A DNA stretch of 45,668 nt, taken from Reclinomonas americana ATCC 50394 (taxonomy: Eukaryota). Shown here piece by piece: positions 1,928 to 31,700 of this stretch; the first letter of the stretch is position 1; each line of letters starts with the position of its first letter. Where the stretch lies: the NCBI GenBank assembly GCA_048213135.1, contig PS015138.1, forward strand, positions 32,246-77,913, written 5' to 3'. A program made the position numbers and the translations under genes. Under the pieces are notes generated by a model that saw only the letters and a program-made list of their open reading frames with translations, was not told where the DNA came from and searched no databases.

Positions 1928-10444
<8,517 letters not shown>

Positions 10445-11189: not shown

Positions 11190-12284
11190 TCACAAACTGA
11201 GACCACCATCCGCGAAACATCTATGAACAACAACCTCCGCCTCCTCGACCAAGAAACACCGCAGCACAATCTCCACCAGGCAGCGTGGATCCTCTTCCTC
11301 CTCTTCTGCATCTTCCTCGTCCAGCATCTCTTGCACGATGAGCATCGCCGACCGAGCTTCAGCAAGCTCCTGCCGAGCCATTCCGCCAGGCGTGGACCAC
11401 ACCCGCACCACGCCATCATAGCTGCCGCTCACAATCCGCTGTCCATCGGGAGCCACGGCGACAGCAAGCACCGCATCCTCATGTCCCTCCAGTCGCCACA
11501 CCTCCTCACCACTTACCAGCGACCACACACGAACCGTGTTGTCACCGCTCCCGCTCACTACGTGCCGCCCGTCCGGCGTAACGGCGACGGACATGACCGG
11601 GAACCTGTGTCCCTCGAACCGTCGCACCACCTCTCCACTCGCCAGTGCCCACAGTTGCACACGTGAAGCTTCGCCGCCACTCACAATGTGCTGACCATCG
11701 AGCGTGACGGCCACACACCGCGCCGCCAACGTGCGCGTGTCCAATCGAAGCACCTCTCGCACCCACGCAACAGACCACACACGCACCGTCCTGTCCCCGA
11801 CCCCAAGCACGAGGTGCTGACTGTCGGGGGTGAAGTCGATGCACTGCACCGCGTCGATGAAGCCGGTCAACATCCGCACCAAGCTTCCGCTCGCGGCCGA
11901 CCACAGACGCACTATCTTGTCACGACCCCCGCTCACAATGAGCTCACCACTGGGTGAGACGGCGACAGCAAGTACCCAGTGCGCAGATCCCTTCAGCTGT
12001 CGCACTTCCTCTCCACTCGCCAGTGACCAAATGCGCACCGTCTTGTCACTGCTCCCACTCACCACGTGGCGGCCATCCGGTGTGACTGCGACACACCACA
12101 CGGAGTTTGTGTGTCCCTCCAGCCGGCGCACCTCTTCGCCACTTGCCAGCGACCACACACGGATGGTCATATCGAGACCTCCGCTCACAAGGTGTTGCGC
12201 GTCGGGAGTGACAACAACAGAGGTCACCCAAGACTTGTGCCCACGCAGGCATGTGCATGGGAGGGAGGGCGGGGAGGAGGTCAT
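11190..12284 (-). CDS. Intronless WD40 protein (7 repeats of about 42 aa) with conserved C-terminal tail, paralogue C
   Basis: 364-aa ORF. Repeats of GHx3VxxVAVTPDGxHxVSGSxDxTVRVWSLASGEEVRRLE. Tail GMARQELAEARSAMLIVQEML(acidic)PRCLVEIVLRCFLVEEAEVVV. Confidence 0.93.
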   Translation of the reverse strand: MTSSPPSLPCTCLRGHKSWVTSVVVTPDAQHLVSGGLDMTIRVWSLASGEEVRRLEGHTNSVWCVAVTPDGRHVVSGSSDKTVRIWSLASGEEVRQLKGSAHWVLAVAVSPSGELIVSGGRDKIVRLWSAASGSLVRMLTGFIDAVQCIDFTPDSQHLVLGVGDRTVRVWSVAWVREVLRLDTRTLAARCVAVTLDGQHIVSGGEASRVQLWALASGEVVRRFEGHRFPVMSVAVTPDGRHVVSGSGDNTVRVWSLVSGEEVWRLEGHEDAVLAVAVAPDGQRIVSGSYDGVVRVWSTPGGMARQELAEARSAMLIVQEMLDEEDAEEEEEDPRCLVEIVLRCFLVEEAEVVVHRCFADGGLSL

Positions 12285-12475
12285 GGGGTGCGCGCAAGAA
12301 GGGACCAGGAAGGAGGATGTCCGGAGGGACAGGCCGTGGGCGAAGCCACTTCCACGTTTCGAAGGCTTTCAATCACCAAGCACAGTTCACTTGTTGCAGG
12401 CAGGCAGGTAGCACAAGCATCACAAGGTGTCACGCAAGAGAGAGAAGAACGAGAGACGAAATAAGCACAACAACT

Positions 12476-13543
12476 TCACAAACTGAAACCGCCATCTGTG
12501 AGACTTCTATCAACTACGACCTCCGCCTCCTCGACCAAGAAACAGCGCAGCACAATCTCGATCAGACACCTCTCCCCCTCCAACTCCAGCATCTCTTGCA
12601 CGATGTGCATGGCGGAGCGCGCGATGAGGAGCTCACATCGAGCGAGGCCGCATCGCGTGGTCCACACTCGCACGGTGTGGTCTTCACCACCACACACGAT
12701 ATGCTGACCATCGTGAGCGACGGCGATCGACAACATTGTGCATTCGCGATCCTCCAGTCGTCGCACCTCGGCTCCGCTGGCCATGGACCACACGCGCACT
12801 GTCTTGTCCCAGCCTGCGCTCACGCTGTGCAGACCGTCGGAGGTGACAGCGACAGACGACACCCACGACATGTGGCCGTCGAACCATCGCACCTGATCAC
12901 CGAGCGTCGGCGACCACACTTGCACTGTGTAGGCAAGATCCCCGCTCACAATGTGCTGGCCATCTGGGGTGACGGCGACCGACGACACGGGCTGAACGTC
13001 TCCCTTTACACGCCGTACTTCGTCACCACTTGCCAGCGACCACATTCGCACCGTGGCGTCCCCACTGCCACTCACCACGTGCCGACCGTCGGGAGTGACG
13101 GCGACAGAGAACACTGCGTTTGTGTGCCCGTCCATCCGACGCTCTTCATCTCCATTGGCCAGCGACCACACTCGCACAGTGCAGTCTCTGCTGCCACTCA
13201 CAATGTGTTGACCATCGGGAGTGACAGCGACAGCCATCACCTCGCGTGTGTGTCCTCCCAGTCGCCGTTCTTCCTTGCCACTCGCCAGTGACCACACTCG
13301 CACTGTCAAGTCGCTGCTGCCACTCACGACATGCTCACCGTTGTGGGTCACGGCGACAGATGTCACCTCTTTCGCGTGCCCCACCAACCGCCGCACTTCC
13401 TTGCCACTCACGAGTCCCCACACGCGCACAGTGTTGTCACGGCTGCCGCTCACAATGTGCTCACCATCGCGGGTGATAGTGACACACAACACTGCTCCAC
13501 TGTGCCCGCGCATGCTTTTGCTGCAGAGGGAGGAGGAAGCCAT
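12476..13543 (-). CDS. Intronless WD40 protein (7 repeats) with conserved C-terminal tail, paralogue B
   Basis: Part of ORF 12476..13684. Start placed at ATG 13543 (MASSSLCSKSMRGH) by analogy with the paralogues. Tail GLARCELLIARSAMHIVQEMLELEGERCLIEIVLRCFLVEEAEVVV. Confidence 0.92.
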   Translation of the reverse strand: MASSSLCSKSMRGHSGAVLCVTITRDGEHIVSGSRDNTVRVWGLVSGKEVRRLVGHAKEVTSVAVTHNGEHVVSGSSDLTVRVWSLASGKEERRLGGHTREVMAVAVTPDGQHIVSGSRDCTVRVWSLANGDEERRMDGHTNAVFSVAVTPDGRHVVSGSGDATVRMWSLASGDEVRRVKGDVQPVSSVAVTPDGQHIVSGDLAYTVQVWSPTLGDQVRWFDGHMSWVSSVAVTSDGLHSVSAGWDKTVRVWSMASGAEVRRLEDRECTMLSIAVAHDGQHIVCGGEDHTVRVWTTRCGLARCELLIARSAMHIVQEMLELEGERCLIEIVLRCFLVEEAEVVVDRSLTDGGFSL

Positions 13544-13756
13544 GGCGTGCGGTGATACGAATAGAAGGGTCGCGCAGGACTCGACGTCTCGTGCCACGTC
13601 GCTCGGAGACTGGATGTGGCAAGACTGTGGCCTTTGCGCTTCCCATTCACGAACGATGTACATTTGCATTCCACCTGCTGACACCTAGAAAAAAACCAAG
13701 AAGGAACTGGAAGGCTAGGCGCTGCGATTTGAGAGAGCGAGCAAACCAGAAATGCT

Positions 13757-14839
13757 TCACAGACGCAGGCTGCCGCATCGAAAGAGGACAGCCTCCGCAT
13801 CCTCTACAATGAAGCAACGCAGCACGATCGCAACCAGGCAGCGCGGATCCGCCTCCTCTCTTTCTTCTTCCTCTTGCTGCAACTCCTGCACGATGCGCAT
13901 CGCCGAGCGCGCACAACTGAGTTCCCCGCGCGCGAGGCCGCATTGCGTGGACCACACACGCACAGTGCCGTCGTTGTTGCCACTCGCCATGTGCTGCCCG
14001 TCGGGACTGACAGCGACAGTGCGCACAGATCCCGCATACCCCTCCAACCGTTGCACCTCCGCGCCACTCGCCAGTGACCACACGCGCACGGTCTCATCCC
14101 GACTCCCGCTCACGACGTGCTGGCTCGCGGGAGTGATGGCGACACAATACACCCCATCGGTGTGTCCCTCCAACCGTCGCACTTCCTTACCACTCAAACG
14201 GGACCACACGCGCACTGTGTTGTCGGTACTCACGCTCACAACATGACGATTGTCGGGAGTGACGGCGACTGAAGATACTTGACTTGTGTGTCCCTCCAAC
14301 CGTTGTACCTCCTCACCACTTTCCAGTGACCACACTCGCACTGTGTTGTCAGCACTTCCACTCACGACGTGCTGACTATCACGCGTGACAGCGACGCACA
14401 TAACCCCATCTGTGTGACCCATCAACCGAAGCACCTCCTCGCCCGTTGCCAGTGACCACACGCGCACTGTTGAGTCAGCACGCGCACTGACAATGTGCTC
14501 ACCATTGGGAGAAATGGCGACACAATACACCGAATACTTGCGCCCCTTCAACAGGCGCACTTGATCCCCACTCGCCAGTGACCACACTCGCACAGTCCCG
14601 TCGTAGCTTCCACTCGCCACGTGGACGCCGTCAGAGGCGACGGCAACAGAGGACACTGGTCCAGTTTGTCCCTCCAACCGTCGTACCTCCTCGCCAGTCT
14701 GCAGTGACCACACGCGCACGGTGTTGTCCCAGCTGCCACTCACCACATGCTGAGTGTCGGGGGTGATGGCCACAGATGTAACCCATCCGGTGTGCCCTAG
14801 CAGGCGCATGCTAGGGAGAAAGAGAGGGGCAGAGTCCAT
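13757..14839 (-). CDS. Intronless WD40 protein (7 repeats) with conserved C-terminal tail, paralogue A
   Basis: 360-aa ORF with the same repeat consensus. Tail GLARGELSCARSAMRIVQELQQ(acidic)PRCLVAIVLRCFIVEDAEAV. Confidence 0.93.
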   Translation of the reverse strand: MDSAPLFLPSMRLLGHTGWVTSVAITPDTQHVVSGSWDNTVRVWSLQTGEEVRRLEGQTGPVSSVAVASDGVHVASGSYDGTVRVWSLASGDQVRLLKGRKYSVYCVAISPNGEHIVSARADSTVRVWSLATGEEVLRLMGHTDGVMCVAVTRDSQHVVSGSADNTVRVWSLESGEEVQRLEGHTSQVSSVAVTPDNRHVVSVSTDNTVRVWSRLSGKEVRRLEGHTDGVYCVAITPASQHVVSGSRDETVRVWSLASGAEVQRLEGYAGSVRTVAVSPDGQHMASGNNDGTVRVWSTQCGLARGELSCARSAMRIVQELQQEEEEREEADPRCLVAIVLRCFIVEDAEAVLFRCGSLRL

Positions 14840-17900: not shown

Positions 17901-20900
17901 AGTACAAGAAGCAGAAGAATCGAAGAAAAGATCCTTACGGGAAGGGTGAAGCTGGGACGCTGGCGAGAGAGAGGGAGAGAAACACACAATGGGAGCGTGC
18001 ATCGGAAGCAGGGGCATGAAGTGAATGGCACCAGCGAGTGTGATCATCAGTGGCAAAACAAGATAATGAGTGGATCATGAGAAGAGAAACGGCAAAGGAG
18101 AACACGGCAGGAGCACGACAAAGAGGCACGGGCAACAGTGAACATGGAACGTATGGAGAAGGGAGGTGAGGCAAGAAAGCGCGCAGATGGGGTGAGCGGC
18201 AGCGAGAGGGAGAGGTGGATTCCACGCTCACCTTTTTCTTGTCGGCGTGTTCGCGGATTCGCTCGATTGCCGTGGAGATGTCCTGAATGCGCTCGATGAT
18301 GGAGGCTGCGAGCGAAGGAACAGGAGGGAAATAGTGAGAGAGGGCGAGTAAAGGACAGAGAGAGGCGTGAGAACGAGTGAGCTAGGTGCGGGTGGACTCA
18401 ACATCATGGATGGATACAAGGCAGCGCATTTAACTGACTCTTCCGCCTCTCTCACGCACGCACGCACGCACTCAGATGCACACACAAACGCGCAAATTCG
18501 GATGCACATGCAGACAGCCAGAAACAACGCACACGCTTCCTTCTCTATCTCTTCTCTGTCATTCTCTCTCACTCACACAACTCGCTGTCTTGCATGCAGC
18601 CAGGAATAACGCAGAAAATCAACCATCCTATCATCCTCTCTCTCTCTCACTCACTCACTCTCGCTATCTCGGATGACTACGAATGCAGCCAGTGCCCACA
18701 CGTCGTACGCCTTCTCCCTCACCCTTCCCCTTCTCCCACACTCACATGCATCCTCCTCATCGCGCAACAACACGGGAGGCGGCGTCGGCGCTCTTTTCTT
18801 CCGCCCTGCCCCCTCCTCATCGCCGCCGCTACTGCTGTCACTGCTGCTCTCCGAATCGCTGTCCTCCGCCACCACCGCAGCCGCCGTCTCCTCCTTCGCC
18901 TTCTCCTCCGCCGCAGCCGCCGTCGCCGGTCTCGCCTTGCACGCTTCAATGTGACGCTGCAGGCGATCGCAGGTGCGCAGCGCGGCGTCCGTGTGATTGG
19001 TGGACACTTGCAGGAAGGCCAGCAGTTTGAGACAGAGCGAGGTGGTCAGGTCGACCAGCTCGCCTGGCACCGCGAAACCGTCCCACCCGATGCGTGCTTC
19101 GCCTGCCGTTCCACTGTCGGGCCAGTGGATGGATTTGAGCAATGTGATGCTCGTGCGGGCGACATCCAGGGCTTGGGATGCTCTGCAAAATAAGGAGAAT
19201 GAGCAAAGAGGGTAACAAGGGAGACTCGGTGGTAAAAGCGCGCAACTTGTGCTTGTGAAAGAGCACCACGGCCGTGTTGTGCAGGCATGCGGCTTGCAGG
19301 AGCATGCACAGACGGCGGGTGGGCGGAGTGGGTTTGGGCAGGAGCGACTTGGGGGGAGGGTTGTCGCCCACGTCCTCCAGGGCGTGCGCGCATTCTTGCA
19401 GGCTGTAGCGGCTGGCGTTGAGGCGGCGGATGCTGCGAATGGGGGGAAGGGTAATGAGGGGAAGGGTGATGAGGGGAAGAGAAATGAGGGGAAAGGAATG
19501 AGGAGAAGGGTACCTAGGGGTGAAGGAGGGTGAGGGGCAGGAGGAGAATGGTGATGAGGGGAAGGAGAAGACGGGTGAGTGGAAGGAGAGGAAGGGAGAG
19601 TGGAAGGGGAAGAGTGAGGATCACAGTGACGGGAGACAGAGCAAGAGATGAGGAGAAGGAGGACAATGGAGAGGGAAGTGAAGCAAGAGAGAGATTGGGG
19701 ACGAAGGGGGAGAAAAGGAGAAGAGAAGGACGAGGAGAGCACGAAGGAGGGGAGAGATGAGGAGATGGAAGACAGTGGAGAGGGAAGTGCAGCAGGAGAG
19801 AGATTGGGGACGAAAGGGGAGAAAAGGAGAAGAGAAGTACGAGATGAGGGATGGAAGACAATGGAGAGGGAAGTGAAGCAAGAGAGAGATTGGGGACGAA
19901 GGGGGAGAAAAGGAGATGAGAAGTACGAGGAGAGCACGAAGGAGGGGAGAGATGAGGAGAAAGAGGACAATGGAGNNNNNNNNNNNNNNNNNNNNNNNNN
20001 NNNNNNNNNNNNNNNNNNNNNNNNNNNNNNNNNNNNNNNNNNNNNNNNNNNNNNNNNNNNNNNNNNNNNNNNNNNNNNNNNNNNNNNNNNNNNNNNNNNN
20101 NNNNNNNNNNNNNNNNNNNNNNNNNNNNNNNNNNNNATTGGGGACGAAGGAGGAGAATGGAGAAGAGAAGTACGAGGAGAGCACGAAACACAAGACGGAT
20201 AGTGAAAGAATATGAGACTCGTGTCACGAACAGTGGAGCAGACAGAGTGGACACGAAAGACAACGGAGTAGGGCGAACATTAAAAAGAGCAAAGATCGAT
20301 GGCAAGAGAGTCGCTACAAAAAGTAAAGAGCATTGTCTCCCACCGCGAAGAGAGTTTCAGAACACGCTCCTTTCTTCCTGTTATCCCTTTTCTTCCTATC
20401 TTGCTATCTCTGTCTCAGTAAATTTGTGCATCTCACTCCTTCCCTTCACCCTCTCCTCACAGCATCCTCGTCTCCTTCCCTACTTCTCTCTCGATACCTC
20501 TGCGCGTACGTACAATTACGCCTCACCAAGTAAAACGAACCTCTTCTCCCTTTCCCCAACATCACTCCCTCCCCTCCCCTTCCCCCTCCCCCATCCACTC
20601 ACATGAAAAAATGCCTCGCCCTCAACGCCGCCAACAACGCCTTCCAAATCCCCGCGTGCGGAATCGGATGCGGTGGAAACGCCGCCTGCCGTCGCATGTG
20701 CGTGGGTGCACTGCGCGGATTCAGCCACGATTCCATGCGCATCAGCAGCTCCATGATCACGTCCGACAGCTCCTCGTCGGGCTCGGCGGAGCCACTGGCC
20801 GTGGGCGAGATGAGCAGGAGCAGGTCGCGGGCCAGGGCCCAGGTGGCGGCCAGCAGCAGATCGCACAGGGGGGAGGCCTTGTGCGGGCCCCACGCTGCCG

Positions 20901-23864: not shown

Positions 23865-24704
23865 CACGTCACACGANNNNNNNNNNNNNNNNNNNNNNNN
23901 NNNNNNNNNNNNNNNNNNNNNNNNNNNNNNNNNNNNNNNNNNNNNNNNNNNNNNNNNNNNNNNNNNNNNNNNNNNNNNNNNNNNNNNNNNNNNNNNNNNN
24001 NNNNNNNNNNNNNNNNNNNNNNNNNNNNNNNNNNNNNNNNNNNNNNNNNNNNNNNNNNNNNNNNNNNNNNNNNNNNNNNNNNNNNNNNNNNNNNNNNNNN
24101 NNNNNNNNNNNNNNNNNNNNNNNNNNNNNNNNNNNNNNNNNNNNNNNNNNNNNNNNNNNNNNNNNNNNNNNNNNNNNNNNNNNNNNNNNNNNNNNNNNNN
24201 NNNNNNNNNNNNNNNNNNNNNNNNNNNNNNNNNNNNNNNNNNNNNNNNNNNNNNNNNNNNNNNNNNNNNNNNNNNNNNNNNNNNNNNNNNNNNNNNNNNN
24301 NNNNNNNNNNNNNNNNNNNNNNNNNNNNNNNNNNNNNNNNNNNNNNNNNNNNNNNNNNNNNNNNNNNNNNNNNNNNNNNNNNNNNNNNNNNNNNNNNNNN
24401 NNNNNNNNNNNNNNNNNNNNNNNNNNNNNNNNNNNNNNNNNNNNNNNNNNNNNNNNNNNNNNNNNNNNNNNNNNNNNNNNNNNNNNNNNNNNNNNNNNNN
24501 NNNNNNNNNNNNNNNNNNNNNNNNNNNNNNNNNNNNNNNNNNNNNNNNNNNNNNNNNNNNNNNNNNNNNNNNNNNNNNNNNNNNNNNNNNNNNNNNNNNN
24601 NNNNNNNNNNNNNNNNNNNNNNNNNNNNNNNNNNNNNNNNNNNNNNNNNNNNNNNNNNNNNNNNNNNNNNNNNNNNNNNNNNNNNNNNNNNNNNNNNNNN
24701 NNNN

Positions 24705-25060: not shown

Positions 25061-27960
25061 TCCAAAGAGGCCGACCCTCGCACGCAAGCGATTCTGGCTC
25101 TTACAGACATTACGAGCCTCGCTCATGTTAGAGGGCGTAAGTTGCGTGTCTCTTTGTCTCTCACTCCCTTTCTCTTTCTTTCTCTCTCTCACGGTTTGTT
25201 GGCGCAGTGTTGTTGACGTTGATTTGGTTGCCGGAGACTGCATCGTATAGCCTGGTTGTGGGCTTGCTTGGCACGGCGAATTGCTTCTTGGCGGCCTTGC
25301 TGGGCATCTTTTGCGTGTACTGGTGAGATTGCGATGCATGTTGCTCCCAGTTGGTGCTTTCGCTGCTCCTCTCTCCTTCCGTTGCTGCTTTGCTCTCCTT
25401 CCGTCGCTGCTTTCGCTGCTTTGCTCTCCTTCCGTCGCTGCTTTCGCTGCTCCTCTCTCCTCCCGTCACTGCTTTCGCTGCTTTGCTCTCCTTCCGTCGC
25501 TGCTTTCGCTGCTTTGCTCTCCTCCGTCGCTGCTTTGCTCTCCTCCGTCGCTGCTTTGCTCTCCTCCGTCGCTGCTTTGCTCTCCTCCGTCGCTGCTTTC
25601 GCTGCTCCTCTCTCCTCCCGTCGCTGCTTTCGCTGCTCCTCTCTCCCTCCCGTCGCTGCTTTCGCTGCTCCTCTCTCCCTCTCGTCGCTGCTTTCGCTGC
25701 TCCTCTCTCCTCCCGTCGCTGCTTTCGCTGCTCCTCTCCCTCTCGTCGCTGCTTTCGCTGCTCCTCTCCCTCTCGTCGCTGCTTTCGCTGCTCCTCTCTC
25801 CCTCTCGTCGCTGCTTTCGCTGCTCCTCTATCCTCCGTCGCTGCTTTCGCTGCTCCTCTCCCTCTCGTCGCTGCTTTCGCTGCTCCTCTCCCTCTCGTCG
25901 CTGCTTTCGCTGCTCCTCTCCCTCTCGTCGCTGCTTTCGCTGCTCCTCTCCCTCTCGTCGCTGCTTTCGCTGCTTTGCTCTCCTTCCGTCGCTGCTTTCG
26001 CTGCTTTGCTCTCCTTCCGTCGCTGCTTTCGCTGCTTTGCTCTCCTTCCGTCGCTGCTTTCGCTGCTCCTCTCTCCTCCCGTCACTGCTTTCGCTGCTTT
26101 GCTCTCCTTCCGTCGCTGCTTCTGCTGCTCCTCTCTCCTCCCGTCGCTGCTTTCGCTGCTCCGCTCTCCTCCCGTCGCTTTCGCTGCTCCTCTCTCCTCC
26201 CGTCGCTGCATTCGCTGCTCCTCTCTCCTCCGTCGCTGCTTTCGCTGCTCCTCTCTCCTCATGTCGCTGCTTTCGCTGCTTTGCTCTCCTTCCGTCGCTG
26301 CTTTCGCTGCTCCTCTCTCCTCCCGTCGCTGCTTTCGCTGCTCCTCTCCTCCTTTGCTGCTTTCGCTACTCCTTTCTCCTCCGTCGCTGCTTTCGCTGCT
26401 CCTCTCTCCCGCGTCGCTGCTTTCGCTGCTCCTCTCTCCCGCGTCGCTGCTTTCGCTGCTCCGCTCTCTCCTTTGCTGCTTTCGCTGCTCCTCTCACTCA
26501 CCCCTCACCCCACCTTTTCTCTTTGCCTCCTCTCGTCCCTTCCCACTCTCCCTTCCCCCTTCACAGGGTCACCGTGCTGGCGGCCCTCAGGATAAACTGG
26601 CGGGAAGACCGCCTCTACTTCATCATCCTCATCGTCATGTGGCTCATCATGGTCACGGCGGCCACGCTCGTCTTCACCGTGGTCCTCCAGTCGATTCTAT
26701 GTGACACGATCCTGAAGGCGATTGGCGGCCAGTGCATACAATTGCGACACGCAGTCGGATCGGTGCATCGAATCCCTGCGTGTGCCTTCTTTTCTTTCTA
26801 ATGCAGCTCACTCTTTGCGTCGCTGTGTGGCAGCTGTATGTCGTGCTGGCGACATTTATTTGCACGCAGAGTGTGCTGATGGCGTCGTACTTTTTGAAGA
26901 TTCACAAGACCAGCTACTTTGACGCCAGTCCACAGCTCAAGTCGGCGATTTGGAAGGTGCTGCCGAACGCTTCATTTTCTGTTGTCTGTGCACTCAGCAT
27001 TATCGCTGTCTCTCTCTGTGTTGCAGACGGTCATCATTGCCGTGACGACGTTCCTGTTGGCGCTGACGGTGTGCATCTCCTTTGTCGGCTCACTGCGACA
27101 AATCAAGTGGGCCAATGGCGACGAGATCCTCGTCACACGCGTGCTCGTGTTCTGCACGCTCACCATTGAAATTGTGGTGTTGCTGCACTCGTCGAGGAAG
27201 AATGACGGCACGCCCGGCTCGGCGGTGAGTGGGAAGGGGGAAAGGGGAAAGGGAGGAGGCAAGGGGGAAGGGGAAAAGGATGGAAAGGGTGCGAAGAGTG
27301 GGAAAGATCGCTTTCTTCATTTGACGTTTATGCCTGCCTCTTCTTTCGCTCGTGCCGCACTCCTCCTGCTGTCGCTCGTGCCGCGCTCCTCCTGCTGTCG
27401 CTCGTGCCGCGCTCCTCCTGCTGTCGCTCGTGCCGCGCTCCTCCTGCTGTCGCTCGTGCCGCGCTCCTCCTGCTGTCGCTCGTGCCGCGCTCCTCCTGCT
27501 GTCGCTCGTGCCGCGCTCCTCTCGTTTGTCGCTCGTGCCGCGCTCCTCTCGTTTGTTGCTCGCTCCTCTCGTTGTCGCTCGTGCCGCGCTCCTCTCGTTT
27601 GTCGCTCGCGCCCTGCTCCTCTCGTTTGTCGCTCGCGCCCTGCTCCTCTCGTTGTCGCTCGCGCCCCGCTCCTCTCGTTGTCGCTCGCGCCCCGCTCCTC
27701 TCGTTGTCGCTCGTGCCGCGCTCCTCTTGTTGTCGCTCGTGCCGCGCTCCTCTTGTTGTCGCTCGTGCCGCGCTCCTCTTGTTGTCGCTCGTGCCGCGCT
27801 CCTCTTGTTGTCGCTCGTGCCGCGCTCCTCTTGTTGTCGCTCGTGCCGCGCTCCTCCTGCTGTCGCTCGTGCCGCGCTCCTCCTGCTGTCGCTCGTGCCG
27901 CTCCTCCTGCTGTCGCTCGTGCCGCGCTCCTCTCGTTTGTCGCTCGTGCCGCGCTCCTCT

Positions 27961-28197: not shown

Positions 28198-28764
28198 ACT
28201 ACATAAAGAAACGGGGTGCTGCATGAAATCCGACAAACCCGCCGCCAGCGACAAGTGTCATAACTTGCAGTTGTCCATTCTTCCCAAGAGCAAGCAATGT
28301 CGGTGTGTGTGTGCGTGTGTGTGTGCGCGTGTGTGCCTCTCTCTATGTGCATCTCTGTCTCTCTCTCTCTCTCTCTCGCTTTCACGCACTCTCCTTCTCT
28401 CAGTTTCCAACGCACTCGAGCGCCGCGCATGAATCGTCGCTGCGCGGGAAGGGTGGAGAAGAGAAAGCGGGGAAGGAGACAACGACGCTGTGTGCTTTGG
28501 AGGCGGACGCAAGCGAATCACTAAGTGGCGGGAGTGGGAGTGCAAGGTGTGTGTGGGCTCTTGAAGAGGGCGTGCTCGTGCATTCGTCTCACGTTATGTT
28601 GATCAACGCACAGCATCGTGGAGCACGAGGAGGGGCGGTAAGTTGCTGTCGCTGTCTTGTTCTCTTCATTCCTTCGCTGGACGACGTTTCTGCATCGTCT
28701 TCCCTGGCCGCCGTACTTCCTCTCCTCCACGTGTGCTGACGGCGTTTTTTTGTGTGCGCACAGC

Positions 28765-31700
28765 ATGATCAACTCGCAGCGCATCATCATGGCCTTTGAG
28801 GTGGTGGAGGAGGCCGTGCGTCTGCGCTGTCAACGCGCACTGGCGCTGTTCAGTCGCGACCATTCCGACTTTGATGTGCGGGCGTGGGTGCCGAGTTTCA
28901 CGCCTGCTGGCATGGATGCAGTGGCCGTGAAGGCGTGGCGTGAGCGACATGCTCCACTCCACCCCTCTCGAGTCAAGTTGTTTGAGGAGAAGCAGCCGGT
29001 GGTGTTGGCCTGGCGTGCCGCCTTTGACGCCGACCCGTCGTCCGACCCTACATGTGACGGTTTCGACACGACGGCACTCACCTCCATCATGCTGTATGGT
29101 GGCTTCGTTCAGGATGACGGTCACAAGCTGCTGCTGATTGACGATGCTGATGTACGGAAGGCAGTGGAGGAGCTGAATGATGTGAGGAATACGTTGGCCC
29201 ACCATCGAGACCAAGCACTATGGACAGATGACACCGTACAGCAGTACCTTGGAGATGGTGGTGTCTTCCTCTCCATCATCTCTCGACTTCAGTTGACGGC
29301 TGATGAGCGAGGTCGATTCGCTGCTCGTGTCTGCGAGACACGCCACGTCCAGCACACCATCAGCACATTCGAGGAGCGTCTGCATCGGCTGGCGGTGCGT
29401 GAGCTCTCATTCTACCAGCACGACGAGAGTGTGCGCAAGGACATGCAGATGTATGTGCCACTGCTGTGCTCACGTGAGCGTGACATCTCGTCGAGAGACA
29501 AGATGATGGATCTGTTGACGGAAGTGGATGTTTTCCTCTCCGACGCCAACACCACCCAGCGTGTGTTGGTGCTCTTCGGCAACAGTGGGGCAGGCAAGAC
29601 CACCACCATGTCGATGCTGGCCGAGCGAGCGTGGCGGCAGTGGCAAACGAGAGAGAGTAGACGAGTGCCTGTGCGTGTGCCTCTCGGTGCACTGCGCAAT
29701 GCTGATGAGCGATTGTTGGCGGAGGCATGGAAGCGACTGTCGCTCGAGTTGGGTTTGGAGTCAGACGTGCGACGGTTGAAGGAAGAGCCGTTACTGTTGT
29801 TGCTTGACGGGTACGATGAGTTGTACCGTGGTGTGAATCTGTTTGTCAAGAACCAGCTGGATGTGTGTCGCGACTTGAAAGTGATTATCACCTGTCGAGG
29901 CGATTACGCACTGACGGCGCTGGGCGGTGTGACGCAGTATCGACGATACTTTGCACCAGTGGATTCACGTGGACAGTTGTGCATGCATCAGCTGATGGAG
30001 CGGCACATTGCGCCGTTCGACAAGGAGCAGATTGAGGAGTACTTTGGGCGGCTGGTGCAAGTGGGTGGAGACGATGATGATGACGGTGGCGAAAAGCGGT
30101 GGTCGACTGCCGAGGAGTACATTCGTGCACTGAAGAGTGTGCATGGTCTGGATGCGCTGGTGTCGAATCCGTTCCTGTTGTCGGTGGTGGCTCGTGTATT
30201 GCCGCAGTTGGTGGCGAGTGGCGTGCAGCGACCGACTCGGCGCGATGTGTTTGACCGTTTCATTCGACAGTGGATTGTGAGGGAGCAGGAGAGGCAGACG
30301 CGTCTTGGTGCGGAGCGTGTGCCGAGTGAAGAGACATGTCTTTCATTCTGTGAGGGACTGGCACGGTTGATGCACGAGAGGAATGTGGTGCGTGTGTCTG
30401 TGAGGGTGGGTCGGTCGGGTAATGATGAGGACGATGAAGAGGGAGTTGATGAATTTGGTGGTGCACCCCGCGGCCGCCGACTGCGAGCGGACGAGAGACC
30501 GATTGACAAGTTCCTCGGTCACAGGAACCAGCATGTGCGAGTGTGCTGCCCGATTGTGCGACGGTATGGGACGAGTCAGTCGGGATTCATGCATCTGTCG
30601 TTGCTGGAGCACTGCGTGGCACGGCATGTGTTTGCGTGGGAGACATGGGGTGAGGAGAGAAGATTGACGGTGCAAGATGTGCAGCAGCATGTGCTGGCAG
30701 TGCGGCTGCTTAATGATCGACCATCGTTGGTAGAGCAAATAGCCGAGGTGGTGCGACGGTCTCCTCGATTGCAAGAGAGACTGTGGGAGGTGATTTCGTT
30801 GTCACGGGAGGTGGACGAAGAGCGATTGGTGACAGCAGCCGCGAATGCGGCGATGATGTTGTGTGTGGCACAGGTGTCGTTCAGTGGGCGAGATCTGTCG
30901 TGTGTGCGAGTGAGGGGTGCGGATTTGAGGGATGCGGTGATGCACAGGACGGTGTGGAGGGGAGCGGATATGCGAGGGGTGAATGTGTGCATGGCGTTCG
31001 CGAGGGAGGCGGACTTTAGAGGGGCGGATGTGACGGAAGTGAAGTGGCCGAAGTTGCCGTTGGCTGTGGGCGCTGGACAGGTGAGATCGGTCGCCGTCAC
31101 TCCTGATGGTCAGCATGCTGTGAGTGGCAGTGACGACCAGACTGTACGGATGTGGTCGGTGGCGACTGGTGAAGAAGTGCGACGTTTGAAAGGGCACACA
31201 GCATCAGTGTTATCCGTCGCCATTACTCCAGATGGCGAACACATTGTAAGTGGGGGTGGGGACAAGACTGTGCGGGTGTGGTCGGTGGCGAGTGGAAAAG
31301 AGGTCCTGCGAATGGAGGGACACACTGGACGAGTGATGACTGTTTCCATGTGTCCTGATGGGCAGCATGCTGTGAGTGGGAGCGAGGACAGGACAGTGCG
31401 AGTGTGGTCACTGGCGAGTGGGAGACAACTGCGACTGTTGGAGGGGCACACTTCTGCGGTGACATCCGTTGCTGTCACTCCCGATGGCCTGCACTGTGTG
31501 AGTGGGAGCTGGGATAGGACTGTGCGTATGTGGTCACTGGCGAGTGGAGAGGAAATTCTTCGATTGAATGGTCACAGTAGCTGGGTGAACTCTGTCGCTG
31601 TCACACCCGATGGCCAGCACGTAGTCAGCGGGGGCAATGACAAGACGGTGAGAGTGCTTTCTGTCGCGGGCGGCGAGGAAGTAAGACGACTGGAGGGACA

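Follow-up and report, generated by a model that had tools for sequence, protein, structure and literature searches.

An NLR-like NACHT receptor gene of Reclinomonas americana with a putative, highly divergent HEPN ribonuclease domain

Results

The receptor gene and its domain order

The subject of this study is a single long gene in a 45,668-nucleotide stretch of contig PS015138.1 (assembly GCA_048213135.1, Reclinomonas americana ATCC 50394; positions 32,246 to 77,913 of the forward strand). We call the whole stretch the window, and all coordinates refer to it. The gene, which encodes a NACHT-type receptor, occupies 28765..33021 (+) as an uninterrupted, intronless open reading frame (ORF) of about 4.3 kb, with 1418 codons and a stop when counted from the first ATG. 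From stop to stop, the frame opens at 28642 and ends at 33021 (+); the first ATG lies at 28765, and a second, at 28789, is an alternative start. The 4254-nt frame is intact: 28765-33018 (+) translates into 1418 residues without an internal stop. From N to C terminus, the protein consists of a helical domain with similarity to HEPN ribonucleases, a NACHT-type STAND NTPase, a short pentapeptide-repeat segment, and a long arm of WD40 repeats. An initial annotation made from the letters had proposed a WD40 sensor, a NACHT switch, and an effector, and this layout is borne out by Pfam matches to NACHT, above its cut-off, and to WD40; the pentapeptide segment at amino acids (aa) 702-758 went unmentioned there. 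The receptor is NLR-like in its logic only. An animal NLR in the strict sense combines NACHT with leucine-rich repeats (LRRs), and no LRR family was found among the best 25 of the 64 Pfam families matched by the whole protein, nor among those matched by aa 1-760.

An HEPN-type motif in the N-terminal domain

The N-terminal region of interest, aa 9-180 (28789..29304, +), is a candidate for a divergent HEPN of the Swt1/DZIP3/CXorf38 type. It begins at the second ATG, which suggests that no upstream exon is missing. Two strings that the initial annotation had singled out ahead of the NACHT domain are present exactly as described: FDTTALTSIM at aa 100-109 (29062..29091, +), in predicted helix 2, and KAVEELNDVRNTLAHH at aa 132-147 (29158-29205, +). 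They occur in the order given, but 22 residues separate them rather than about 25. Within the second string lies RNTLAH (R141, N142, and H146; 29185..29202, +), an R-x4-H motif with N directly after the R, at the end of a predicted helix. This helix spans aa 127-148 in an AlphaFold model computed without an alignment (mean predicted local distance difference test, pLDDT, 39) and aa 128-146 in a model from an HEPN-seeded alignment. D101, in the first string, aligns by both hhalign and MAFFT with the D that the family conserves in its W-D-x3-L-L-x2-M helix. R141, N142, H146, and this upstream acidic residue are all present in the receptor. HEPN domains have been described as carrying R-x4-6-H where helix 3 ends and the loop to helix 4 begins, with a polar N, D, or H after the R, while helix 2 contributes a conserved acidic residue near the motif (PMC3710099; this and the other papers cited here are drawn on in part). 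The predicted geometry of R141-N142-T-L-A-H146 and D101 is consistent with that description.

Compared with bacterial Swt1-like HEPNs, the receptor domain has an insert of about 65 residues at aa 33-99, between helix 1 and helix 2, and its loop before helix 3 is five residues longer. The start of family helix 3, E-R-S, reads V-R-K in the receptor, and the W of RNrWAH is L. As a bare pattern, RN...H occurs once in the 1418 residues against 0.075 occurrences expected from composition, which makes it mildly unlikely by chance; the sequence context around it beats chance in the shuffle tests described below.

Profile, alignment, and language-model evidence

Searching aa 1-220 against Pfam at E ≤10 returned two families, both of them HEPN: HEPN_Swt1 (E 0.0063, 17.2 bits) and HEPN_Cthe2314 (E 0.12). 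When the query was trimmed to aa 92-185, these matches stood at E 0.002 (18.8 bits) and E 0.03, respectively, and the only other family at E ≤1 was Vinculin (0.27). HEPN_DZIP3 (PF18738) did not match aa 1-220 at E ≤10 or the trims at E ≤1. No NCBIfam family matched aa 1-220; PADLOC returned only CARF3--CARF for the same residues (E 0.05) and only P-loop-level matches for aa 1-760. An N-terminal HET, HeLo, Death, or TIR domain was considered and rejected, there being no Pfam match to any of them.

We also compared the domain with two hidden Markov model (HMM) profiles of our own. The first was made from 30 loci of PF18731 (HEPN_Swt1), obtained from the 34 of 301 planctomycete genomes with a match; the second comprised 41 domains, these 30 together with 11 from proteobacteria (11 loci, in the 11 of 401 genomes with a match). 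Against aa 1-220 the first profile scored 13.0 bits (E 5.5e-6 for one target), a value equaled by none of 2000 shuffled sequences (best 9.2), and the second scored 17.0 bits (E 3e-7; again 0 of 2000 shuffles as high, best 11.6). The score thus rose, from 13.0 to 17.0 bits, with the more diverse profile. An hhalign comparison over aa 99-159 gave P 3.3e-4 with a probability of 38% for the first profile and P 1e-4 with a probability of 58% for the second. It paired F100-D101-x3-L-x2-I-M with W-D-x3-L-L-x2-M, the receptor's E-L-x3-R-N-x2-A-H with the family's E-L-R-x2-R-N-R-W-A-H, and D155-D156 with D-D, so that the similarity reaches past the motif to a D-containing helix 40 residues upstream and a DD 10 residues downstream. 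When aa 9-185 and 29 of the 41 bacterial domains (12 near-duplicates were dropped by hand) were aligned by MAFFT, unguided, R141 and H146 were the only two invariant columns, A145 was nearly invariant, and the N-terminal helix of the receptor (MAFEVVEEAVRL...) aligned with family helix 1.

Neighbors in protein language-model space were obtained from the ESM Atlas. With aa 1-235 as the query, HEPN_DZIP3 and HEPN_Swt1 clusters took the first two places, at 0.80 each (a score reached by a third of shuffled proteins), and 9 of the 10 best named matches shared a family or clan. For aa 9-185, a query restricted to named clusters, the top three scores were 0.95, 0.94, and 0.94, where about 1 in 100 shuffled proteins reaches 0.95. 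The 30 matches to this shorter query divided into 13 from the HEPN_DZIP3 set, 7 from the DUF4559 set, 3 carrying both DZIP3 and DUF4559, 4 from HEPN_Swt1, and 3 without a common family. DUF4559 is PF15112 in Pfam, which we take to be CXorf38. The neighbors of aa 9-185 were for the most part mollusc clusters with the HEPN_DZIP3 label, and the first match (0.95) was a cluster in which 11% of members bear the DUF4559 label. Of all the lines of HEPN evidence, these neighbors are the least bound to the motif.

HEPN appears to be the only family signal to be found for the N-terminal domain. It recurs in Pfam, our own profiles, hhalign, MAFFT, and the language-model neighbors, as several weak lines of which none is decisive. 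Because its Pfam score lies below the family cut-off, we file the candidate domain as Swt1/DZIP3-like rather than as a member of HEPN_Swt1.

The NACHT-pentapeptide-WD40 chassis and its relatives

A helical linker without a family match (aa 181-265; 29305..29559, +) joins the HEPN-like domain to a NACHT-type STAND NTPase module at aa 266-700 (29560..30864, +). Pfam NACHT (PF05729) scores 29.6 bits against a cut-off of 26.7 over aa 266-359, a match that covers only positions 1-99 of the 167 in the profile. Both nucleotide-binding motifs are intact: the Walker A motif or P-loop GNSGAGKTT (aa 272-280; 29578-29604, +), which conforms to GxxGxGK[ST], and the Walker B motif LLLLLDGYDE (aa 343-352; 29791-29820, +), which conforms to hhhhDGxDE. 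The pentapeptide-repeat segment that follows (aa 702-758; 30868..31038, +) is recognized by Pfam Pentapeptide (PF00805) at aa 707-738, with 21.6 bits against a cut-off of 20.2, and over its whole length by pentapeptide-repeat proteins in the PDB (best E 1.5e-5).

The presumed sensor comprises fourteen WD40 repeats of about 42 residues each at aa 761-1346 (31045..32802, +). Pfam WD40 (PF00400) matches in 12 stretches with E 4.4e-120, and the 14 units were counted with an eye-guided regular expression; this number would be enough for two seven-bladed propellers. The protein ends in a 72-residue tail with no family match (32803..33018, +). Three tandem stand-alone WD40 genes lie elsewhere in the window, at 11190-14839 (-) (ORFs 11190-12284, 12476-13684, and 13757-14839). 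They encode 360-402 residues with about 7 repeats each, show 55-59% identity to the WD40 arm of the receptor and 56-58% among themselves, and share a C-terminal tail (ARSAM.IVQE...RCL..IVLRCF.VE.AE) that the receptor does not have. Perhaps they act as decoys for the receptor or as its partners, or are paralogues reduced to the sensor.

In a word-indexed protein library, aa 225-700 found only three relatives of similar length. Two of them, P0005 (from JGI) and P0006 (from a metagenome-assembled genome [MAG] of Mycoavidus cysteinexigens), have the same chassis and the same NACHT-pentapeptide-WD40 order as the receptor, with 28% identity over 95-99% of aa 225-700; their N-terminal regions of about 520 residues, in contrast, are unrelated to the receptor's and have no Pfam match. 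The third (P0007) combines TIR and FGE-sulfatase domains. Since the N termini of its relatives are unrelated to that of the receptor, the N-terminal module on this chassis has evidently been exchanged, as would be expected of an effector position. MAGs of M. cysteinexigens hold at least five paralogous NACHT-pentapeptide-WD40 loci (L001-L005; about 1650-1710 residues, 65-100% identity to P0006), each with an unannotated N-terminal region of about 520 residues, an expansion that is unusual for a 2.6-Mb endofungal bacterial genome.

A much closer relative comes from EukProt: P0008, a 178-residue protein whose source name traces it to the expressed sequence tag (EST) EC799200.1, is 90% identical to receptor aa 278-423. 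A close relative of the NACHT part is thus present in a eukaryote EST collection. Residues 1-23 of this protein resemble an ORF in the +1 frame at 29528-29779 (MFSSPTPTPPSVCWCSS..., at 29528-29600) and not the receptor frame, for which reason a frameshift in the EST, a short way upstream of the P-loop, is probable; the true product would then continue N-terminally. Within the window, a tblastn search with receptor aa 1-760 matched only the gene itself.

How secure is the HEPN assignment?

The HEPN assignment of the initial annotation holds in part: the signal recurs in profile, hhalign, MAFFT, and language-model comparisons, but every Pfam score remains below its cut-off. HEPN_Swt1 (PF18731) has a gathering cut-off of 27.5 bits, and three trims of the domain scored 17.2, 17.5, and 18.8. 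Together with the shuffled-protein values given above for the language-model scores, this shortfall heads a list of observations that weigh against the assignment. The Pfam match spans only profile positions 75-102 of 115, which is the motif helix, and hhalign probabilities were no higher than 38-58%. In one of the 41 bacterial domains (L059), among the 12 rows left out of the MAFFT alignment, the motif R is replaced by H. HMM scores, hhalign, and MAFFT alike draw on the same 30-60 motif-bearing residues and are therefore not independent of the observation that started the analysis. As for the language-model neighbors of aa 9-185, only 3 of the 10 best named matches share a family with the first, and the family labels, which sit on 11-39% of cluster members, come with scores that are uncalibrated for parts of proteins. 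Homologues were equally elusive: a word-indexed search with aa 1-260 found none, and neither did an exhaustive phmmer search with aa 1-220 against 1.84 billion cluster representatives.

Structure prediction belongs on the same side of the balance. The fold expected of an HEPN is an up-and-down bundle of four helices. The initial annotation had looked to a fold search with an AlphaFold model for confirmation, and the outcome was equivocal. Without an alignment, the N-terminal domain was modeled at pLDDT 39, too poor to search with. With the MAFFT alignment, aa 9-185 reached pLDDT 73 and a predicted template modeling score (pTM) of 0.64, but this model was built on an alignment of HEPN domains and is thus circular rather than an independent test. 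Foldseek found no significant match to it in the PDB (best E 1.5). VIA-align gave a best Z of 6.6, to helical hairpins, and placed the Csm6 HEPN ribonuclease (4rgp_B) at Z 6.3 with a root-mean-square deviation of 5.0 over 108 residues, which is within the quoted noise for helical bundles. Csm6 was also the only long alignment among the matches listed first. Comparison with PDB sequences gave none for phmmer with the N-terminal domain at E ≤10 and marginal matches for the profile of the MAFFT alignment (E 0.076 for a CRISPR-associated protein, 0.69 for HepS). The marginal profile matches suggest that no close solved structure of the Swt1-like HEPN branch exists to be found. The sole match in the exhaustive phmmer search, a tandem-repeat protein (P0004) aligned to aa 166-213, was rejected as a spurious chance match.

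Could the N-terminal region instead be a helical domain specific to its lineage and unrelated to HEPN, perhaps an adaptor or oligomerization module of the sort found among the numerous unannotated N termini of STAND proteins, in which RNTLAH and its surroundings resemble HEPN by chance? This is the principal alternative, and it draws on the failure of any HEPN family to reach its Pfam cut-off, on the lack of homologues in our searches and the nonsignificant fold comparisons, and on the nearest chassis relatives, whose N termini without Pfam matches mean that orphan N-terminal domains are normal here. A bare motif expected 0.075 times in a protein of this size is also no great rarity. Chance resemblance accounts poorly, however, for several other results: the two Pfam families returned for aa 1-220 are both HEPN, neither profile was equaled by any of 2000 shuffles, the similarity extends beyond the motif in both directions, and the language-model neighbors are mostly HEPN-labeled clusters. 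On balance, we consider this alternative unlikely.

A second possibility is that the domain descends from HEPN but is no nuclease, serving instead as an RNA-binding or protein-interaction module, a role that has been proposed for the HEPN dyad of eukaryotic Swt1, while another partner provides the output. Swt1's own HEPN has been described as probably inactive, with partial conservation across the Swt1-like clade (PMC3710099), and the V-R-K and L substitutions in the receptor would fit such a loss. Inactive HEPNs, however, are recognized by the loss of exactly the motif residues (PMC3710099), and the receptor keeps the R, the polar N after it, the H, and the upstream acidic residue. We regard a non-nuclease role as improbable. 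Our preferred reading is therefore the one with a catalytic domain: the receptor is an NLR-like STAND (NACHT) protein that starts with a four-helix domain, a far-diverged HEPN ribonuclease of the Swt1/DZIP3/CXorf38 kind. To this reading we assign a probability of about 0.68. That the domain has an HEPN fold with a competent catalytic motif we put at about two in three.

Genomic setting

Minisatellite arrays flank the receptor gene on both sides, at 25355-26495 and 27346-27959 upstream (37.6 copies of 31 bp and 23.8 copies of 26 bp) and at 33141-34716 and 35616-36461 downstream (3.8 copies of 416 bp and 6.1 copies of 138 bp). Coding density in the window is low, with long micro- and minisatellite arrays, and many of its long ORFs are minisatellite repeats read in frame. 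Two separate minus-strand ORFs, at 4617-5252 and 3410-4555, match Adaptin_N at profile positions 344-465 and 468-523, respectively; the division of this Adaptin_N-type gene (3410-5252, -) into two or more ORFs implies an intron. Beside the gene, at 5481-5554 (-), lies one for a tRNA (Rfam, 70.8 bits). A 156-residue ORF at 40850-41317 (+) matches a protein kinase over profile positions 54-147 only and is probably one exon of a split kinase gene. The window also contains six runs of N, 1924 bases in total (1125-1283, 7924-8659, 19976-20136, 23877-24704, 37772-37791, and 39875-39894), so that the contig is a gapped scaffold and some neighboring gene models are broken by gaps.

Read on its own letters, the window argues for an intron-bearing eukaryote, as supported by the split Adaptin_N and kinase ORFs, the low coding density, the satellite arrays, and the EST-derived relative. 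The eukaryotic host named by the initial annotation is thus supported, by the split ORFs and by the 90%-identical EST-derived protein. A prokaryotic origin of the window was rejected in view of the split Adaptin_N and kinase ORFs. That the receptor ORF is no working eukaryotic gene but was recently inserted from a bacterium, is a contaminant, or is a copy in decay would suit its lack of introns and the presence of bacterial MAG proteins among its best NACHT-pentapeptide-WD40 relatives, yet we find this very improbable given the intact 4254-nt frame with all NTPase motifs, the eukaryote-type features on both sides of it (split Adaptin_N, kinase ORFs, and minisatellites), a G+C content of 58.3% close to the window's 56.2%, the 90%-identical EST-derived relative in EukProt, and the mere 28% identity to bacterial proteins.

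Discussion

The domain order of the receptor leads us to propose how it might work. HEPN ribonucleases, whose activity needs no metal and depends on the motif R and H, act as dimers with a composite active site, and STAND NTPases oligomerize once their sensor binds ligand. An HEPN domain placed N-terminally on a NACHT module therefore offers an obvious route to proximity-induced activation. In the receptor, the C-terminal double WD40 propeller would serve as the ligand sensor, the pentapeptide repeats as a short connector, and the NACHT NTPase as a nucleotide-driven oligomerization switch. Binding of a ligand to the propellers would release the NACHT module, whose oligomerization would let the N-terminal HEPN domains pair up as the dimers that such ribonucleases require, and the active ribonuclease could then cut cellular RNA, invader RNA, or both, leading to growth arrest or cell death. 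Both the ribonuclease activity and its activation by oligomerization are, for this receptor, inferred.

The initial annotation implied that an NLR-like receptor with a ribonuclease output would be new. This is not supported, as HEPN-NACHT proteins are reported to be common in anthozoans and bivalves and HEPN-STAND proteins to occur in bacteria (PMC8260672, PMC9646362, PMC3710099). In animals, HEPN domains of the DZIP3 and CXorf38 types are fused to NACHT; in bacteria there are STAND NTPases that an N-terminal HEPN precedes; Naegleria and dictyostelids have Swt1-like HEPN solos that are active, and DZIP3 is expanded in Capsaspora (Anantharaman et al. 2013, PMC3710099). A DZIP3-like HEPN is the commonest non-LRR partner of NACHT in 9 of the 15 cnidarian species surveyed, and anthozoans have 17-83 HEPN-NACHT proteins each (PMC8260672). 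In the pearl oyster, over 50 NACHT proteins bear an HEPN N-terminally, and 194 of 202 HEPN proteins keep R-x4-6-H, usually with N after the R (PMC9646362). Coral and bivalve NACHT proteins may end in LRRs, tetratricopeptide repeats, or WD40 repeats, and a ribonuclease or immune role for their HEPN-NACHT receptors is offered as a proposal (PMC8260672, PMC9646362).

How does the receptor compare with these systems? With the DZIP3/hRUL138-like HEPN-NACHT proteins of anthozoans and bivalves (PF18738 plus PF05729) it shares an N-terminal HEPN-type R-x4-H with N after the R, a NACHT domain, and a repeat sensor. Unlike them, it has no PF18738 match, searches with its N-terminal domain found no sequence-level relative, it has a pentapeptide connector, and its host is not obviously an animal (56% G+C, an intronless 4.3-kb ORF). 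The CXorf38-type HEPN of cephalochordates and cnidarians belongs to the Swt1-like clade, is predicted to be active, and is fused to NACHT; it also has a Zn-ribbon insert and partners such as a double-stranded RNA-binding domain, Death, or CARD (PMC3710099), none of which Pfam detects in the receptor. The receptor's best profile match is to the bacterial Swt1-like HEPN (PF18731), with W/F-D-x3-L, E-L-x3-R-N-x2-A-H, and D-D in common; the bacterial PF18731 proteins are solos or are fused to a large C-terminal region (the examples collected are open frames of about 190-1200 residues). Fungal proteins of the HET-E type (HET-NACHT-WD40) and bacterial Avs/bNACHT antiphage STANDs share the plan of effector, NACHT switch, and repeat sensor, with highly regular WD40 repeats, but neither Pfam nor PADLOC detected a HET or known Avs effector domain in the receptor. 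WD40 sensors are also found in bacterial STANDs (PMC13581612).

The design is thus not new, being abundant as HEPN-NACHT in cnidarians and bivalves and known as HEPN-STAND in bacteria. The novelty lies in the combination of a probable orphan HEPN subtype with a NACHT-pentapeptide-WD40 chassis, in a eukaryote that bears introns. The host is evidently not one of those animals, the HEPN-like domain appears so divergent that library models and sequence searches miss their thresholds, and the pentapeptide-WD40 sensor arm is of a kind shared with proteins of an endofungal bacterium. In the literature we found no report on HEPN NLR-like receptors of unicellular eukaryotes, in a search bounded by the main texts of the animal surveys; for NACHT combined with pentapeptide repeats and WD40, titles and abstracts likewise yielded no eukaryotic HEPN receptor.

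Tentatively, and at a little less than even odds, we suggest that the host is no animal but probably a protist, and that its NLR-like receptor works, with an HEPN ribonuclease of a previously unsampled subfamily as its output, mounted on this chassis, which has its nearest relatives in an endofungal bacterium. If so, STAND immunity with a ribonuclease output would not be confined to bacteria and metazoans, and a third lineage would have either assembled the design independently by effector swapping or acquired it by horizontal transfer. Being compact and intronless, and coming from another eukaryotic lineage, such a receptor would make a convenient test case for whether NACHT oligomerization switches on an HEPN ribonuclease. 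An HEPN ribonuclease switched by NACHT would be a eukaryotic counterpart of bacterial STAND-nuclease defense, and the receptor would both extend the known range of the design and add an HEPN subtype that current profile libraries miss.

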